A stretch of DNA of 9,928 bases, taken from a virus. Its lineage: Duplodnaviria; Heunggongvirae; Uroviricota; Caudoviricetes. The stretch spans positions 1 to 9,928 of the IMG/VR virus record IMGVR_UViG_2698536618_000006. One strand, written 5' to 3'. The notes beneath the pieces were generated by a model. That model worked only from the letters and a program-made list of their open reading frames with translations, searched no databases and had not been told where the DNA came from. Of the stretch, positions 57-8,914 are shown one piece after another. Both the position numbers and the translations under genes were made by a program. Each line of letters starts with the position of its first letter. Within the stretch, counting starts at the first letter, position 1.

Positions 57-689
57 TTACCTCTTTCTCAGGAAGTTTAGTCTCCAGGATTCCCGGGGCG
101 GTTCAATAAGGCGTTTTGCTTCCTCCTTTTCCAGCCATCTGACTCGCTTGTTTCTGACCGCTGGTATCTTGATGACAGGCGCTTTTTCCAGCCACTTCCA
201 GTCGCGTTCTGCAGCACGGAGAATGGCCTTTATCATGGCAAGATGCTTTGCCTTTGTCTGAGTTGATACTGGCTTTGGTTCATAAACAGGCAGTTCTTTA
301 CCTTTCCTGATGGCGGCCTGAACTTTCTGTTTCCATATTTCTTTCGTCTTTCTGTTATGCATTCTGCTTACAGCAGAGTAAATCTTTGCCTCCGAGATAT
401 CTTTAAGCCTTATACCCTCAAAATGTTCAAGCCAGAACTCAATCCGGCTTTTATCTGAATCGAGAGATTTTTTATCAGCTTTTTCCTCAAGCCATCTTAG
501 GCAGGCCTCTTCAAAAGTGACATCAGGTAAATCCCCTAGCTTTTCTACTCGCCAGAGTTCTGCTTTTCGCTTGTCGTGCAACTCCTGAGCTTGCCGCTTG
601 TCCTTTGTGCCAAGAGATTCCTTAATTCGTTTCCCGCCCGGGAGCGAATACGAGGCATACCATATTTCATTTCTGCGGAAGAGTGACAT
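57..689 (-). CDS. int: Tyrosine integrase, N-terminal 210 aa only; the ORF hits a stop at 57-59 before any catalytic domain, so it is probably frameshifted or truncated
   Basis: ATG at 689-687, TAA at 59-57. Sits directly downstream of and overlapping an excisionase-like gene, as in lambdoid int-xis modules. The 210 aa lack the R-K-H-R-H-Y catalytic region expected in a 350-410 aa integrase. A different minus-strand frame stays open from about 102 to the window edge. Confidence 0.55.
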
Positions 690-1822: not shown

Positions 1823-2380
1823 TCATGCAGCCTCCCGACGGGCAAGAATCCTTGAGCCGAACGCCATCAACTCTCCACGATCAACGGTCGTAAAGTGGCA
1901 GTGTGTACGGGGGTATGGGTGCCAGATAATGAGCATCGAGCCTTTATTATTTCCACTGACGGGTTTCTCAGTGAGTGGGTTAATAAATGCCAGTCGTCCT
2001 GCCGTGATGAATCTGACCTCACTGGCGGTTTGTATCGCTTCATGAAACCATCCGACAGATGTGTCAGCAGGCAATAACATTACACATCCCACACTACTGA
2101 ATTTGTTTTCAGTGGCTGCCTTTTTCACAAAAGGGGAAATATTGCTGTATGGTGGATTCAACCAGACATAACCAGAGGCATATCCCATTGCTTCAGGCCA
2201 TGAAGTGGTTAATGTGTTCTGCTCCTGTGAGATAAAAAGCCGACATAGTCGGTTTTTTTCGCTGGCGGCAGCATCAAGTTGAAAAACGAACTCTGCATTA
2301 AGCGCAGCAAAAATCTCTGGTGGTGTGCGCCAGCTGTCGCGATGTTCGGCAGGAGTATTGCTTCCGGTGAAATCAGTCAT
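1823..2380 (-). CDS. Phage Dam-type DNA N6-adenine methyltransferase (orphan, 185 aa)
   Basis: ATG at 2380-2378 with a GGGGG Shine-Dalgarno-like run upstream. Contains the NPPY catalytic motif (VWLNPPYSN) of N6-adenine/N4-cytosine methyltransferases. Size and context fit the small phage Dam family. No restriction endonuclease gene is adjacent. Confidence 0.75.
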   Translation of the reverse strand: MTDFTGSNTPAEHRDSWRTPPEIFAALNAEFVFQLDAAASEKNRLCRLFISQEQNTLTTSWPEAMGYASGYVWLNPPYSNISPFVKKAATENKFSSVGCVMLLPADTSVGWFHEAIQTASEVRFITAGRLAFINPLTEKPVSGNNKGSMLIIWHPYPRTHCHFTTVDRGELMAFGSRILARREAA

Positions 2381-5683: not shown

Positions 5684-6265
5684 ATGAACAACTCATGGTG
5701 GCAGGAACTAATGCATTTTTTCCTGCAAGGAATGACACTTAAACAGTTGATTCATATGCTAATCATCCTGATCATATTGATTATTGTTATGCCGGTAAGC
5801 GTAAAAGAATGGATAAACCTGCATAATCCAGAAATCCTTCCTCATTATTGGATGTATTACATCCTGTTGTTCTGCGTTAGCTATGTGCTTAACGGTGTTG
5901 TTAATTCCGCTTATCACGCTGTGACTGAAAGAATTGAGGTATCCGCTGCTCAGAAGCGCAAATCTAAAGAAGAAAAATATGTGCAAGATTTGTTTGATTC
6001 GTTAACTCTTGGAGAAAGAGCGTATTTGGCATTCGCTGTAGCCGCGAATAACCAGCTAAAGACAGAAAAGGGAAGCCCTGAAGCAATCTCATTGCTCGAA
6101 AAAGGGCTTCTTATTCGGATACCTTCTGCTACTGGATATCCTGAAATCGACCGTTTTGTTATCCCGGAACGCTATAGAAATGAGTGCTACATTAGGTTTG
6201 CTGGGAAGAAAGACAGTCTTATGGATGAACTTATCGCTCAGGATAAGCATGGCAAAAACAAGTAA
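5684..6265 (+). CDS. sieB: Superinfection exclusion protein B (SieB), membrane protein, 193 aa
   Basis: ATG at 5684. Hydrophobic N-terminal segment (LIHMLIILIILIIVMPV) and a sequence recognisable as lambda/P22 SieB. Plus-strand gene between ral and N, as in lambda. Confidence 0.85.
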   Translation: MNNSWWQELMHFFLQGMTLKQLIHMLIILIILIIVMPVSVKEWINLHNPEILPHYWMYYILLFCVSYVLNGVVNSAYHAVTERIEVSAAQKRKSKEEKYVQDLFDSLTLGERAYLAFAVAANNQLKTEKGSPEAISLLEKGLLIRIPSATGYPEIDRFVIPERYRNECYIRFAGKKDSLMDELIAQDKHGKNK

Positions 6266-6280
6266 TTAGCAAATGATTTA

Positions 6281-6553
6281 TCATCTCGCCGTCAGTTGTT
6301 TTGATTTCCTGTAGCCTGCCGCGTAAATGGCTACGTTTGGCAGGCAAACACTTCCACTGCATTCATCAACTTTCTTGCAGCGAAGACTTCCGAGTGATGC
6401 TGCTTTGTCTGCTCTGACGCAACCAGAGAGCTTTAGCGCAATTTTTCGCGCCAGTCGCTGCTCTTGCATCGCCTGTTCACGTTGAGCCTGTCTGCGTGCT
6501 CTGCGGCGATTTCTGGCGTTATCGTCAGCCAGATATGTAATGACTACTGTCAT
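6281..6553 (-). CDS. N: N-type transcription antitermination protein, 90 aa
   Basis: Internal ATG at 6553-6551 preceded by GGAGG (the track ORF begins at a GTG further upstream). Arginine-rich N-terminal motif DDNARNRRRARRQAQREQ and a C-terminus CLPNVAIYAAGYRKSKQLTAR like the N proteins of 933W and P22. First gene downstream of pL/nutL. Confidence 0.8.
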   Translation of the reverse strand: MTVVITYLADDNARNRRRARRQAQREQAMQEQRLARKIALKLSGCVRADKAASLGSLRCKKVDECSGSVCLPNVAIYAAGYRKSKQLTAR

Positions 6554-6863: not shown

Positions 6864-6905
6864 TTCCCGCATTTCGGCGGGACAATCCCATCAATGTTAA
6901 AGAGC
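6864..6905 (-). promoter_or_regulatory. nutL: nutL: boxA GCTCTTTAACA plus boxB hairpin
   Basis: On the minus strand, GGCTCTTTAACA (plus 6895-6905), a 12-nt spacer, then UCCCGCCGAAAUGCGGGAA (plus 6864-6882). The same boxA core and an identical 19-nt boxB recur on the plus strand between cro and cII (8534-8578). Confidence 0.7.
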
Positions 6906-6951
6906 CTGCCAATCTGTTCCGTTTGGCTACCAGCGTCCTGCTGATGGTTAA

Positions 6952-6980
6952 AGAATACTGTAGGTATTTTATTTTGTAAA
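6952..6980 (-). promoter_or_regulatory. pL: pL early-left promoter: -35 TTTACA, 17-bp spacer, -10 TATTCT
   Basis: On the minus strand the -35 is at plus 6975-6980 and the -10 at plus 6952-6957. The -10 lies inside the OL1 operator and the -35 abuts OL2. The same -10 hexamer is used by the candidate pR. Confidence 0.6.
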
Positions 6981-7037
6981 TACTCAAGGTATTTATTTTG
7001 GTGAAATAATGATAAGCAAATGAATACAAAGGATATT
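6954..7037. promoter_or_regulatory. OL: OL operator array: three 15-bp sites with consensus AATAC-N5-GTATT
   Basis: AATACTGTAGGTATT (6954-6968), AATACTCAAGGTATT (6979-6993) and AATACAAAGGATATT (7023-7037, one mismatch). The first two are 25 bp apart, the same spacing as the OR sites. Confidence 0.6.
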
Positions 7038-7123
7038 TATTTTTTCGGCGTCTGCTTGTTCAGTGCTTTTTATGCGGGATATGTGAAGTGGATCCCGATA
7101 GCTATTGCTGCCGGGATTATGGG

Positions 7124-7492
7124 TTAGTCAGCGAAGGTTAAGACGAGAATTACCTTAATGATGTCTGCTACAACAGACACGGCCATAGATAAACCAAAGA
7201 CGATCCAAGCCATAGAGATGTCTTCACTACCATCGTATAGAGTTCCGTAATCACTGGTATAAGGCGTAAATGTCGCGCCTTGATACAATAGGTATAAGCT
7301 TGATCCATAGAGGATAAATGCAGATATCCCTTGTATTGCTATGATCACCAGAATCATGAAACGAGCTGATCTATGCGCCCAAGCCTGGCTTATTTTTTCT
7401 GATAGAGATTTCGCAAGAAAAGCATGCGCTAAGCCGTAAATTGTCGAGATTGCCAACATCCCAAAAAAGCTTGCTATAGCGGTTCCAACCAT
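7124..7492 (-). CDS. Small integral membrane protein (122 aa, three predicted TM helices), co-transcribed downstream of cI; function unknown
   Basis: ATG at 7492-7490 with AAGGGG Shine-Dalgarno 5 nt upstream; the track's 7513 start is a TTG. It begins 17 nt after the cI stop on the same strand. Three hydrophobic stretches: residues ~2-27, ~45-70, ~94-120. It occupies the position that rexA/rexB hold in lambda. Confidence 0.65.
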   Translation of the reverse strand: MVGTAIASFFGMLAISTIYGLAHAFLAKSLSEKISQAWAHRSARFMILVIIAIQGISAFILYGSSLYLLYQGATFTPYTSDYGTLYDGSEDISMAWIVFGLSMAVSVVADIIKVILVLTFAD

Positions 7493-7509
7493 AAGCGCCC
7501 CTTGCGTGA

Positions 7510-8226
7510 TCAAACCAGCCTTAGTTTTGTCTCAATTGCAACGCCTATAATCTTGCAGTTTCCATTGATTGGCACGAGAGGCCATGCAGGATTAAGTCCC
7601 TTGAGGTATTTATTTCCGCCGTCGATTATCAGCTTCTTGAATGTTGCTTCGTTAGAGTCAGAAAGTTTTGCTATGACCAAGCTGCCGTTGACCGCCTCCC
7701 TTCCGGTATCGAAAAGAACGAATGTTCCCTCTGGAATGCTTAACCCAACCGGTGCCGTCATTGAATCACCTTCCACTTTAAGCCAGAACGCATTACCTTG
7801 AATATGCGCGTCAGACTCAAGCCAAACATCTATGTCTTTAATGGTGTATGGTTCGCATGCTTCACACCACGAGCCAGCCTGGATACTGCTTAACACCGGA
7901 TACCTCTTTCCTGCTCTGTATTCCCCTGCATACCTTACGTTGGCATCGCTCTTAAGGCTTTCTGCCTGTTCTGCAACCTTGGCAGCAATTGACTGGCTAA
8001 AATCAGCAATTGAGACTTGCAACAACCGTGCAAAACCAGATGCAACCTCAACGTTTAGCGCGTTTCTGCCATTAAGATAATGCCCTACCGCTCCTTGGGT
8101 GATACCCAGTTCATCAGCGATTGAGTATTGGGTTATTCCCAATTCTTTCTTTTTTGACTCATACAAAGCCTTAAGCCGCTTAGCGTCTTCGAGCTGTTCT
8201 GTCGTCAGTGATTTTTTATTTTCCAT
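7510..8226 (-). CDS. cI: CI-type prophage repressor (HTH N-terminal domain, LexA-like S24 autopeptidase C-terminal domain), 238 aa
   Basis: ATG at 8226-8224. The N-terminal region resembles lambda CI (LTTEQLEDAKRLKALYESKKKELGITQ). The C-terminal domain resembles 434 CI / P22 C2, with an Ala-Gly cleavage site (IQAGSW), the catalytic Ser in GDSM and Lys in FKKL. Divergent from cro with operators in between. Confidence 0.9.
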   Translation of the reverse strand: MENKKSLTTEQLEDAKRLKALYESKKKELGITQYSIADELGITQGAVGHYLNGRNALNVEVASGFARLLQVSIADFSQSIAAKVAEQAESLKSDANVRYAGEYRAGKRYPVLSSIQAGSWCEACEPYTIKDIDVWLESDAHIQGNAFWLKVEGDSMTAPVGLSIPEGTFVLFDTGREAVNGSLVIAKLSDSNEATFKKLIIDGGNKYLKGLNPAWPLVPINGNCKIIGVAIETKLRLV

Positions 8227-8237
8227 AGCTTAATTCT

Positions 8238-8303
8238 AATAGCTAAGGTACTTAAACTAAAAATACCCTGAGTATTGATTGATTTGAATACCTGTAGTAT
8301 TCT
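8238..8303. promoter_or_regulatory. OR: OR operator region with pR (-35 TTGATT 8275-8280, -10 TATTCT 8298-8303) and a candidate leaderless pRM
   Basis: OR1 AATACCTGTAGTATT (8287-8301) and OR2 AATACCCTGAGTATT (8262-8276) are 25 bp apart; a degenerate third site AATAGCTAAGGTACT lies at 8238-8252. The pR -10 sits inside OR1. On the minus strand a TAGAAT hexamer (plus 8233-8238) lies 6 nt upstream of the cI ATG, suggesting a leaderless cI mRNA as in lambda. Confidence 0.6.
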
Positions 8304-8332
8304 TTGTTCATGGTTAATAACGGAGAGTGCAT

Positions 8333-8527
8333 ATGATTCGAATGACACTTGCCGATTACGCCAAAATCCATGGACAGGCTAAAGCAGCCAGTGACTTTGG
8401 TGTAATCCAGTGCGCTATCAGCAAGGCCATTCTGGCAGGCCGTAACATCATGGTTACGGTAAAGCCTGATGGCAGTGTGATTGGAGAGGAAGTTCGTCCT
8501 TTCCCAAGCAACAAGAAAAACAAATAG
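8333..8527 (+). CDS. cro: Cro repressor, 64 aa
   Basis: ATG at 8333 with GGAGA Shine-Dalgarno 6 nt upstream (the track start at 8327 is a GTG). [64 protein letters not shown] resembles lambda Cro. First gene downstream of pR. Confidence 0.85.
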
Positions 8528-8533
8528 TAACAC

Positions 8534-8578
8534 CGCTCTTTAACAGTCATGGTCATCACTCCCGCCGAAATGCGGGAA
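8534..8578 (+). promoter_or_regulatory. nutR: nutR: boxA CGCTCTTTAACA plus boxB hairpin
   Basis: boxA at 8534-8545, a 14-nt spacer, then UCCCGCCGAAAUGCGGGAA at 8560-8578, identical to the nutL boxB. A GCGCA...TGCGC hairpin with a T-rich tail at 8585-8618 may mark a tR1-like region. Confidence 0.7.
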
Positions 8579-8635
8579 TACAACGCGCATAATTTGATGC
8601 GCATAACTTCTTATTTGTTAAGGAAATACTTACAT

Positions 8636-8914
8636 ATGCAACTTACAAGTACTCGCAAGAAAGCGAATGCAATTACAAGCAACATCCTGAATCGAATTGC
8701 TGTACGTGGTCAGCGAAAGGTTGCCGACGCGTTAGGGATTAATGAATCGCAAATTTCGCGATGGAAAGACAGCTTTATCCCAAAGATGGCCATGCTTCTG
8801 GCTGTGCTGGAGTGGGGTGTTGAAGACGAGGAATTAGCAAAGCTAGCAAAGAAAGTAGCCATGGTGCTGACAAAAGAAAAGCCTCAAGACTGCTGCAACA
8901 GTTTTGAGGCCTGA
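8636..8914 (+). CDS. cII: CII transcriptional activator, 92 aa
   Basis: Start re-set to ATG 8636 (AAGGAAA upstream); the track ORF start at 8549 lies inside nutR. HTH region ...GINESQISRWKDSFIPKMAMLLAVLEWGV resembles lambda CII (...QISRWKRDWIPKFSMLLAVLEWGV). Confidence 0.85.
   Translation: MQLTSTRKKANAITSNILNRIAVRGQRKVADALGINESQISRWKDSFIPKMAMLLAVLEWGVEDEELAKLAKKVAMVLTKEKPQDCCNSFEA

Follow-up and report, generated by a model that had tools for sequence, protein, structure and literature searches.

We are confident that the region described here is a lambdoid immunity region of the HK620/HK140/mEpX2 type, carried by a prophage, and that it most likely forms a lambda-style bistable switch. This reading is based on phage identity, the relations of the repressor domains, site statistics, promoter geometry, and the finding that sites and promoter hexamers are conserved from genus to genus. 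Over positions 6900-8600 (1,701 bp) of the window, by which we mean the whole 9,928-nucleotide stretch of DNA analysed, the sequence has 100% nucleotide identity to HK140 (JQ086370) and 98.5% to HK620 (AF335538; Clark et al. 2001). Identities to HK620, mEpX2 (98.8%), HK630, HF4s and some Stx2c-converting phages range from 98.2% to 98.9%, with near-identical cI, cro and operators. The immunity region is thus not new: its CI and operators are shared unchanged with HK140 and at about 98.5% identity with HK620, mEpX2, HK630 and some Stx2c phages, and the type has already been sequenced and annotated. The module was found in 146 of 5,426 complete E. coli genomes. A search of the accessible literature, which did not include the original HK620 paper, found no binding, footprinting or induction work on this CI or Cro.

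The window shares cI, hkaS, cro, pL and pR with the HK140/HK620/mEpX2 group, while the surrounding genome differs from that of the HK620 group by mosaicism. For example, HK140 encodes a RecT-type annealing protein and lacks lambda-type exo/bet, whereas the prophage analysed here carries lambda-type exo/bet/gam and O genes, as the earlier reading of the sequence alone (the sequence-only reading) had said in describing its recombination and replication genes as lambda-like. That reading had also proposed an immunity specificity distinct from that of lambda, and this proposal stands: neither the lambda nor the 434 operator consensus is present, and the near-identical mEpX2 forms a separate immunity group. 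Specifically, mEpX2 and lambda are listed in different immunity groups, and double lysogens carrying both phages have been constructed (PMC3442831). The published mEpX2 cI primers match the window exactly and, judged by the mEpX2 data, the phage should be heteroimmune to lambda.

The operators are 17 bp long and have the form nAATAC-N5-GTATTn, with the symmetry axis passing through the central base pair. A motif search found exact copies of AATAC-N5-GTATT starting at 6954, 6979, 8262 and 8287, a copy with one mismatch at 7023, and a sixth, degenerate copy with two mismatches at 8238-8252 (AATAGCTAAGGTACT), in agreement with the five good copies and one degenerate copy in two arrays reported from the sequence alone. 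In the left array, OL1 (6953..6969, GAATACTGTAGGTATTT; position weight matrix (PWM) score 20.2) and OL2 (6978..6994, AAATACTCAAGGTATTT; PWM score 22.0) are both exact and lie over the -10 and the -35 hexamer of pL, respectively. In the right array, the degenerate OR3 (8237..8253, TAATAGCTAAGGTACTT) has two mismatches and lies over pRM, OR2 (8261..8277, AAATACCCTGAGTATTG) is exact, adjoins the pRM -35 and lies over the pR -35, and OR1 (8286..8302, GAATACCTGTAGTATTC), likewise exact, lies over the pR -10. The HK620 record annotates OL1-3, OR1-3, pL and pR, and its OL1, OL2, OR1-3, pL and pR fall at these positions. Four of its operator 17-mers (OL1, OR1, OR2 and OR3) occur exactly in the window and OL2 agrees in position with one spacer base changed; in all, five of the six annotated operators map exactly onto sites picked out by the sequence-only reading.

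The first two sites of each array are 25 bp apart from centre to centre (OL1-OL2 and OR1-OR2), the distance originally claimed; OR2-OR3 measures 24 bp, OL2 and the probable OL3 discussed below are 44 bp apart, and OL is separated from OR by about 1.33 kb. The three operators between the divergent cI and cro genes overlap pR and pRM in the lambda register, with the pR -10 within OR1, the pR -35 at the edge of OR2 and the pRM -10 at the edge of OR3. Their centres lie 19 (OR3), 43 (OR2) and 68 bp (OR1) upstream of the cI ATG, compared with 19, 42 and 66 bp in lambda. The description of these operators as not lambda-type therefore holds for their sequence, where the half-site is nAATAC as opposed to TATCAC in lambda, but not for their geometry (17 bp, a central base pair, and nearly the same distances from cI); moreover, the half-site bases A2, A5 and C6 are common to both phages. 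The symmetric lambda operator consensus (TATCACCGC-type half-sites) had no match at three or fewer mismatches, and 434-type ACAA-N6-TTGT sites are absent from OL and OR.

Both control regions are AT-rich, and the palindromes might be chance matches or the sites of another factor and not the CI/Cro operators. We give this explanation almost no weight. Searching with AATACNNNNNGTATT at one mismatch or fewer returned five matches (6954, 6979, 7023, 8262 and 8287) where 0.25 would be expected by chance, a 20-fold enrichment; all five are confined to the two arrays in the two intergenic control regions, and none of 200 shuffles gave five matches. The sites also occupy the positions relative to cI that the operators of lambda occupy. 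Conservation argues in the same direction. Upstream of cI, the operator arms and promoter hexamers are all that stays conserved in about 20 relatives belonging to other Enterobacterales genera: across 20 upstream regions with overall identities of 48-67%, the columns with at least 90% conservation fall in the AATAC/GTATT arms of three sites, including the OR3 position, and in the -10 hexamers. The arms persist across genera while spacers and flanks drift, a pattern that reads as a clear phylogenetic footprint. The relatives' CI recognition helix is always (T/S)QG(A/G)(V/I)(G/A)HY. In phage Fostie, CI has Ser45 in place of Gly45 and the sites are TAGTAC-N5-GTACTA; the sites and the helix of the repressor thus change together.

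The promoters had been described as overlapping the operators and sharing the -10 hexamer TATTCT, and this description was borne out by a promoter scan for pL, by reading of the sequence for pR, and by the HK620 record for both. On the minus strand, pL (6952..6980) has the -35 TTTACA (6980..6975), a 17-bp spacer and the -10 TATTCT (6957..6952); the scan scored it 9/12, and it coincides with the pL of the HK620 record. A 36-bp block, 97% identical, maps the 5' nucleotide of pL in the P22 record to position 6945, and the pL transcript probably starts near there. A GTATTcTT block at pL is kept in the relatives. On the plus strand, pR (8275..8303) combines the -35 TTGATT (8275-8280) with a 17-bp spacer and the -10 TATTCT (8298-8303). 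It scores 8/12 against the consensus, just below the threshold of the scan, which for this reason did not call it; it coincides with the pR of the HK620 record, and the final T of its -10 and the TTG of its -35 are kept in relatives.

A putative pRM, which the HK620 record does not annotate, occupies 8233..8261 on the minus strand, with the -35 TTTAGT (8261..8256), a 17-bp spacer and the -10 TAGAAT (8238..8233). Reading of the sequence places this -10 6 nt from the cI ATG, the same register as the TAGATT-N6-ATG of lambda, so that the cI mRNA would be leaderless, as in lambda, and the hexamer (TA.aAT) is kept in the 20 diverged upstream regions. Two further control sites match the HK620 record exactly: nutL (6865..6906, minus strand) and the pRE/CII-binding region (8620-8659, plus strand). 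The cII gene (8636-8914, plus strand) matches Pfam Phage_CII at E 2e-44.

The cI gene (7510..8226, minus strand) encodes a protein of 238 amino acids, 100% identical to HK140 CI, with a lambda-type helix-turn-helix (HTH) and arm at its N-terminus and a 434-type S24 domain at its C-terminus. Both Pfam matches pass the curated cut-off (HTH_3, E 8e-10; Peptidase_S24, E 1.3e-23), as is characteristic of the LexA/lambda-CI class of autocleaving repressors, and the protein matches the lambda repressor structure 3bdn in the PDB at E 2e-52 over residues 3-232. The QAGSW (A117-G118), GDSMT (S155) and TFKKL (K197) motifs align with A111-G112, S149 and K192 of lambda, supplying an Ala-Gly cleavage site and a Ser/Lys dyad.

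We compared the two domains separately, taking as the 434-type reference the CI of phage Huey, which over residues 2-70 has exactly the sequence of the 434 repressor in the PDB. Residues 1-92 match lambda at 47 of 92 positions (51%), whereas the 434-type and P22 C2 proteins are not detectably similar there (15/64 and 17/66 in partial alignments, 23-26%). Residues 108-238 match the 434-type protein at 94 of 131 positions (72%), P22 C2 at 70 of 131 (53%) and lambda at just 51 of 130 (39%), and the blocks AGSWCEACEPY and NGNCKIIGV are common to this cleavage and oligomerisation domain in the window, 434 and P22. These values bear out the mosaic structure, lambda-like at the N-terminus and 434/P22-like at the C-terminus, that had been noticed at the outset. 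The activation-patch residue Asp38 of lambda is kept. The recognition helix reads T43 Q44 G45 A46 V47 G48 H49 against G Q S G V G A in lambda, differing at residues 45, 46 and 49; with QGAVGH in place of QSGVGA, the protein is not of the imm-lambda type. Nor does it belong to 434 immunity, given its dissimilar N-terminal domain and the lack of ACAA-N6-TTGT in OL and OR.

The word chimeric, which had been applied to CI, is apt for its mosaic domain architecture; it should not be taken to mean a recent recombinant. A natural or laboratory-style joining of the 5' half of lambda cI to the 3' half of 434 cI or P22 c2 would make the module a new hybrid immunity. It would account for the split in identities, with lambda nearest to one domain and 434 to the other, and lambdoid repressors do exchange domains in nature; two loci (L051 and L052), for example, match only residues 95-238, at 76%. 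We nevertheless regard such an origin as highly improbable and rejected it because the DNA has no blocks of high identity to lambda or 434. At the DNA level, no match of the window cI to lambda cI was detectable, and its identity to the 434-type cI reaches only 73%. The N-terminal domain is only 51% identical to that of lambda and carries a different recognition helix. More than 20 species of other genera have the same pairing of domains, at 54-76% identity and in each case with operators to match, and the protein is identical to that of HK140, which its record describes as a phage isolated in Hong Kong.

Cro (8333..8527, plus strand; 64 amino acids, with a recognition helix of 10 residues) belongs to the lambda Cro family across its whole alpha+beta domain. 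It covers positions 1-59 of the 59 in Pfam Cro PF09048 (E 3.6e-26; 91.3 bits against a cut-off of 32.7), matches lambda Cro in the PDB at E 4.7e-19, and is 63% identical to lambda Cro. In the published 'evolutionary code' of Cro proteins, Gln at H1 goes with A2, Ala at H3 with A5, and Lys at H6 with C6 (PMC6649833); applied to the Cro of the window, this code predicts nAnnAC, the half-site that is observed. Among 19 loci of the relatives, tblastn found a cro in 17, and in these the Cro helix is Q-x-A-I-S-K, with Gln for Lys in one of them (L020).

Between cI and OL, in the position of rex, lies a gene for a hydrophobic protein of 122 amino acids (7124..7492, minus strand) that is presumably co-transcribed with cI. 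Lambda has rexA and rexB here, while the window has this one small gene, probably for a membrane protein. Its homologue is named hkaS in HK620, and it matches phrog_6534, a family of unknown function, at E 6e-79; significant Pfam, PADLOC or NCBIfam matches were not found.

The window and the HK620 record part ways at the third left operator. The sequence-only reading had placed OL3 at 7023-7037, whereas the HK620 record labels this stretch tIMM and puts OL3 elsewhere. The 17-mer at 7022-7038 (GAATACAAAGGATATTT) has one mismatch to the motif and scores higher than any other 17-mer of the window once the five training sites are set aside. A PWM score as high as its 12.1 turns up at some place in 28% of shuffled 9.9-kb windows, and the case for OL3 here draws on position and conservation, not on score alone. 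A site 44-45 bp from OL2 is kept in six diverged relatives, each with at least one near-perfect AATAC half-site, while the half-site matrix gives -21.4 for the 17-mer where HK620 has its OL3 annotated. On both counts, OL3 at 7022-7038 is better supported than the OL3 of the record.

If instead the record is right, the 7022-7038 palindrome terminates the cI-hkaS transcript and the real OL3 lies about 22 bp from OL2, near 7000-7016. Besides the annotation itself, this alternative is favoured by a conserved A-run that flanks the element on the cI-sense strand, by the U-rich sequence that follows it, and by its location: in every class-A relative it comes directly after the final gene of the cI operon, a place that would suit a terminator as well. 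However, the RNA does not form a stable hairpin (minimum free energy -6.5 kcal/mol, z = -0.30, unstructured centroid), and a terminator scan had no match there; a fold of 7013-7043 no better than its shuffles led us to set the terminator back to a minor rival. The spacing points the same way, since at 21-22 bp from OL2 no class-A relative carries a site, whereas at 44-45 bp six do, and a terminator would not need a fixed phase to OL2. The poor score at the annotated position counts against the record as well. We therefore consider the terminator reading unlikely, though worth keeping in view; a dual role of 7022-7038 as operator and terminator is a further alternative.

On balance, we lean somewhat towards placing the OL3 of HK620-type phages at a weak distal site 44-45 bp from OL2, here 7022-7038, and not at the position given in the 2001 record. 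The OL3 of lambda lies about 20 bp from OL2. If our placement is correct, an OL layout of 25 + 45 bp would stand beside the lambda-like 25 + 21 bp as a second, conserved arrangement within a widespread lineage of repressors with a lambda-type N-terminus and a 434-type C-terminus, and the distal OL3 could alter repression of pRM by OL-OR looping.

The switch that we propose would operate as follows. CI dimers would bind the 17-bp nAATAC-N5-GTATTn sites through the lambda-type HTH, whose recognition helix differs from that of lambda at base-contacting positions. The OR1/OR2 and OL1/OL2 pairs, with their 25-bp spacing, would be filled cooperatively by way of the 434-type C-terminal domain, and bound CI would block the -10 and -35 hexamers of both promoters, pR and pL. 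At OR2, centred at about -43, CI would be placed to activate the weak pRM, which would make a leaderless cI-hkaS transcript. At high CI, the weak OR3, probably with OL3 at 7022-7038, would shut pRM down. RecA-stimulated self-cleavage at Ala117-Gly118, using Ser155 and Lys197, would induce the prophage, and the lambda-type Cro made from pR would bind the same sites. Binding, cooperativity, activation, looping and cleavage are put forward as proposals, those for binding, cooperativity, pRM activation and looping by analogy with lambda.

For annotation, we can confidently call the region an HK620/HK140-type immunity module, predicted to be heteroimmune to lambda; the prophage that carries it is a mosaic and has red and O genes of lambda type. 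Beyond annotation the importance of the region is small. As a by-product, OL3 and tIMM can probably be corrected in the reference record of HK620. The analysis also defines the putative operator nAATAC-N5-GTATTn for the whole lineage of repressors with a lambda N-terminus and a 434 C-terminus, which helps to predict the immunity groups of prophages.

The immunity span and its flanks show the classic lambdoid early-control gene order. N (6281-6553, minus strand) is followed by nutL, between N and the left control region (about 6950-7040); then come a gene for a small hydrophobic, probably membrane, protein of 122 amino acids (7124-7492, minus), cI (7510-8226, minus), the right control region (8227-8332), cro (8333-8527, plus), cII (8636-8914, plus) and O (from 8949, plus). 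Upstream of the span are sieB and three lambda-type genes, exo, bet and gam.

We searched the window for AATAC-N5-GTATT, allowing at most one mismatch, and found five matches (starts 6954, 6979, 7023, 8262 and 8287), all within the two control regions. The expectation by chance is 0.25, and none of 200 shuffles contained five or more. A sixth, degenerate copy with two mismatches lies at 8238-8252. The repeated arrays described by the sequence-only reading are thus present, as is its 25-bp spacing of the first two sites: centre-to-centre distances are 25 bp for both OL1-OL2 and OR1-OR2, 24 bp for OR2-OR3 and 44 bp for OL2-OL3. OL1 (6953-6969), OL2 (6978-6994), OR1 (8286-8302), OR2 (8261-8277) and OR3 (8237-8253) supply ten half-sites, which in a 17-bp register read R-A-A-T-A-C-(C/T)-n; A2, T4 and A5 never vary, and A3 and C6 occur in nine of the ten. 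A pattern search of the control regions found neither lambda-consensus nor 434-type sites. The mirror-image promoters with a common -10 TATTCT, also proposed earlier, are real. pL (6980..6952, minus strand; TTTACA, 17 bp, TATTCT) was called by the promoter scan, and pR (-35 TTGATT at 8275-8280, 17 bp, -10 TATTCT at 8298-8303, plus strand) was read from the sequence, since its score of 8/12 fell one short of the scan threshold. Their -10 hexamers are embedded in the promoter-proximal halves of OL1 and OR1, respectively.

A scan with one genome per species gave 80 loci encoding CI relatives, of which about twenty are full length, at 54-76% identity, from Lelliottia, Siccibacter, Enterobacter, Tatumella, Lonsdalea, Serratia, Pantoea, Providencia, Proteus, Yersinia, Pectobacterium, Scandinavium and Kluyvera. 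Every full-length relative has the helix (T/S)QG(A/G)(V/I)(G/A)HY and at least one nAATAC-N5-GTATTn site upstream of cI; most have three, with centres grouped at 18-20, 41-44 and 65-69 bp from cI. Using tblastn, we found a divergent lambda-type cro in 17 of 19 relatives, with the Cro helix Q-x-A-I-S-K, except that one (L020) has Gln for Lys. We aligned the 100 bp upstream of cI, over which the relatives are only 48-67% identical to the window. Conservation reaches 90% or more in the operator arms, in the T that ends the pR -10 and in the pRM -10 (TA.aAT), and 70% or more at the G of the pR -35 TTG; the spacers (five bases) and the DNA between sites drift. This footprint argues strongly, if indirectly, that these are the sites that function. 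Phage Fostie points the same way: in its CI (62% overall identity) residue 45 is Ser, against Gly in the window CI, and its sites, TAGTAC-N5-GTACTA (L005 1907-2000 and 2800-2831), carry G for A at half-site position 3, a possible residue-base co-variation. The Fostie record has no annotation of its lambda-type cro.

CI (238 amino acids; Pfam HTH_3 and Peptidase_S24) matches the full-length lambda repressor structure (PDB 3bdn, E 2e-52) over residues 3-232. We measured identity domain by domain against repressors from phage records, with phage Huey CI, whose residues 2-70 are identical to crystallised 434 repressor, as the 434-type reference. Over residues 1-92, identities were 47/92 to lambda, 58/92 to Fostie, 15/64 to the 434-type, 24/69 to mEp213 and 17/66 to P22 C2; over residues 108-238 they were 51/130, 86/131, 94/131, 89/131 and 70/131, respectively. 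With identity divided in this way between lambda (N-terminal) and 434-type (C-terminal), the earlier description of CI as chimeric is correct. We judge that the mosaic is not a recent event, because the cI DNA is far from both sources (73% identity to the 434-type gene in the C-terminal coding half, and no DNA-level match detectable to lambda cI) and the same domain combination occurs in many other genera. Some loci match CI only in part: two from Yersinia (L051, L052) over the C-terminal domain only (residues 95-238, 76%), the partial matches among these and L025, L027-L029 and L031 covering either residues 95-238 only or residues 21-238. Such loci show that the 434-type C-terminal domain is paired in nature with other N-terminal DNA-binding domains.

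Alignment predicts cleavage at Ala117-Gly118 and catalytic residues Ser155 and Lys197. The recognition helix reads T43 Q44 G45 A46 V47 G48 H49 Y50 L51 N52 G53 R54 N55, compared with G Q S G V G A L F N G I N in lambda CI; Gln44 and Asn52/55 are retained, whereas positions 45, 46 and 49, which contact bases in the lambda co-crystal, are altered. Both Pfam (PF09048, E 3.6e-26) and PDB (lambda Cro, E 4.7e-19) matches place Cro in the lambda Cro family, and it shares 63% identity with lambda Cro; in its helix, H1 is Gln, H3 is Ala and H6 is Lys. A published "evolutionary code" for Cro associates these residues with A at +2, A at +5 and C at +6 (PMC6649833), so the predicted half-site is nAnnAC.

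The operators had been called not lambda-type, which holds only in part. They differ from lambda TATCAC at half-site positions 3 and 4 (A2, A5 and C6 are common), but their geometry is lambda-like: each spans 17 bp, and the dyad axis passes through a base pair. OR3, OR2 and OR1 are centred 19, 43 and 68 bp upstream of the A of the cI ATG, compared with 19, 42 and 66 bp measured on the lambda sequence. The pRM -10 keeps its register (TAGATT, 6 nt, ATG in lambda; TAGAAT, 6 nt, ATG here), and the predicted -35, TTTAGT, is weak and abuts OR2; from this we infer that pRM would yield a leaderless cI mRNA and would need CI at OR2. Asp38 of the lambda activation patch is kept in CI (QYSIADELG vs QESVADKMG).

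Distinctness from known immunity types, by contrast with distinctness from lambda, did not survive comparison. Window positions 6900-8600 are 100% identical to phage HK140 and 98.2-98.9% identical to HK620, HK630, mEpX2, HF4s, phi296/phi367, HZ41, 611R6 and two Stx2c-converting phages; the module occurs in 146 of 5426 complete E. coli genomes. In the record for HK620 (Clark et al. 2001), cI carries the note "similar to 434 and L cI" and cro the note "similar to lambda and HK97 cro", and OL1-3, OR1-3, pL, pR, nutL/R and pRE are marked as well. Its OL1, OR1, OR2 and OR3 are exact in the window, and OL2 differs by one spacer base. Non-lambda immunity already has experimental support, because Refardt (2012, PMC3442831) assigns mEpX2, whose cI primers in that paper match the window exactly at 7669-7691 and 7744-7764, to a different immunity group from lambda and constructed lambda/mEpX2 lysogens, both double and triple. 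Our literature search turned up no biochemical work on this CI or on this Cro.

Several features of the surrounding DNA were also noted. A 36-bp block at 6917-6952 (L004 2239-2274) is 97% identical to phage P22 and begins exactly where the pL -10 ends on its downstream side, which marks a sharp mosaic junction between immunity-specific DNA and an early-left leader that is shared. The 5' nucleotide annotated for pL in the P22 record maps to 6945. The 122-residue protein gene, a homologue of HK620 hkaS, occupies the place of lambda rexA/rexB between cI and OL. It matches phrog_6534, a family of unknown function, and nothing in Pfam, PADLOC or NCBIfam; presumably expressed in the lysogen, it could be an exclusion or defence factor. 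A SieB superinfection-exclusion gene lies beside N (5684-6265, plus strand; Pfam SieB, E 1.4e-25), and the early-left region encodes a phage DNA methyltransferase (1823-2380, minus strand; phrog_111). The window opens, over its initial 100-120 bases or so (1-118), with the end of an IS3-family insertion sequence that is multicopy, present at thousands of places in E. coli genomes. This element breaks the integrase gene (57-689, minus strand) after about 195 codons; we call it interrupted because the ORF matches integrase families over the N-terminal part only, and int is probably inactive as a result.

The HK620 record and the sequence-only reading disagree on OL3 (7000-7043; L001 1601-1644). 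The record places it in a 17-mer 22 bp from OL2 (about 7000-7016) and labels the stretch that includes the alternative site, 7022-7038, as a terminator, tIMM. On our half-site matrix the annotated 17-mer scores -21.4, without resemblance to the other operators, against 12.1 for 7022-7038, the top score in the window apart from the five training sites. At least one site scoring 12.1 turns up in 28% of shuffled windows; simple scaling puts the probability of such a site in the ~130 bp beyond OL2 well below 1%. Six diverged relatives (L013, L014, L015, L065, L030, L022) have the same layout, with 25 bp from OL1 to OL2, 45 bp to the distal site and no site at 21-22 bp, and four (L012, L016, L017, L024) combine lambda-like 25 + 21 spacing with a degenerate remnant at 45 bp. 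As for a terminator, the fold of its supposed RNA is no better than that of shuffles (z = -0.30), and a terminator scan found none at the supposed tIMM. On the scores, the relatives' layouts and the lack of a terminator fold, we prefer 7022-7038 as OL3 with moderate confidence and regard the OL3 and tIMM of the HK620 record as probably misplaced. A conserved AAAAATAAATA A-run flanks the distal OL site in relatives, and because of it we keep in view that 7022-7038 may have a dual role. A probable re-placement of OL3 is all that is new here; the module very probably operates as a standard lambda-type switch whose specificity has changed.
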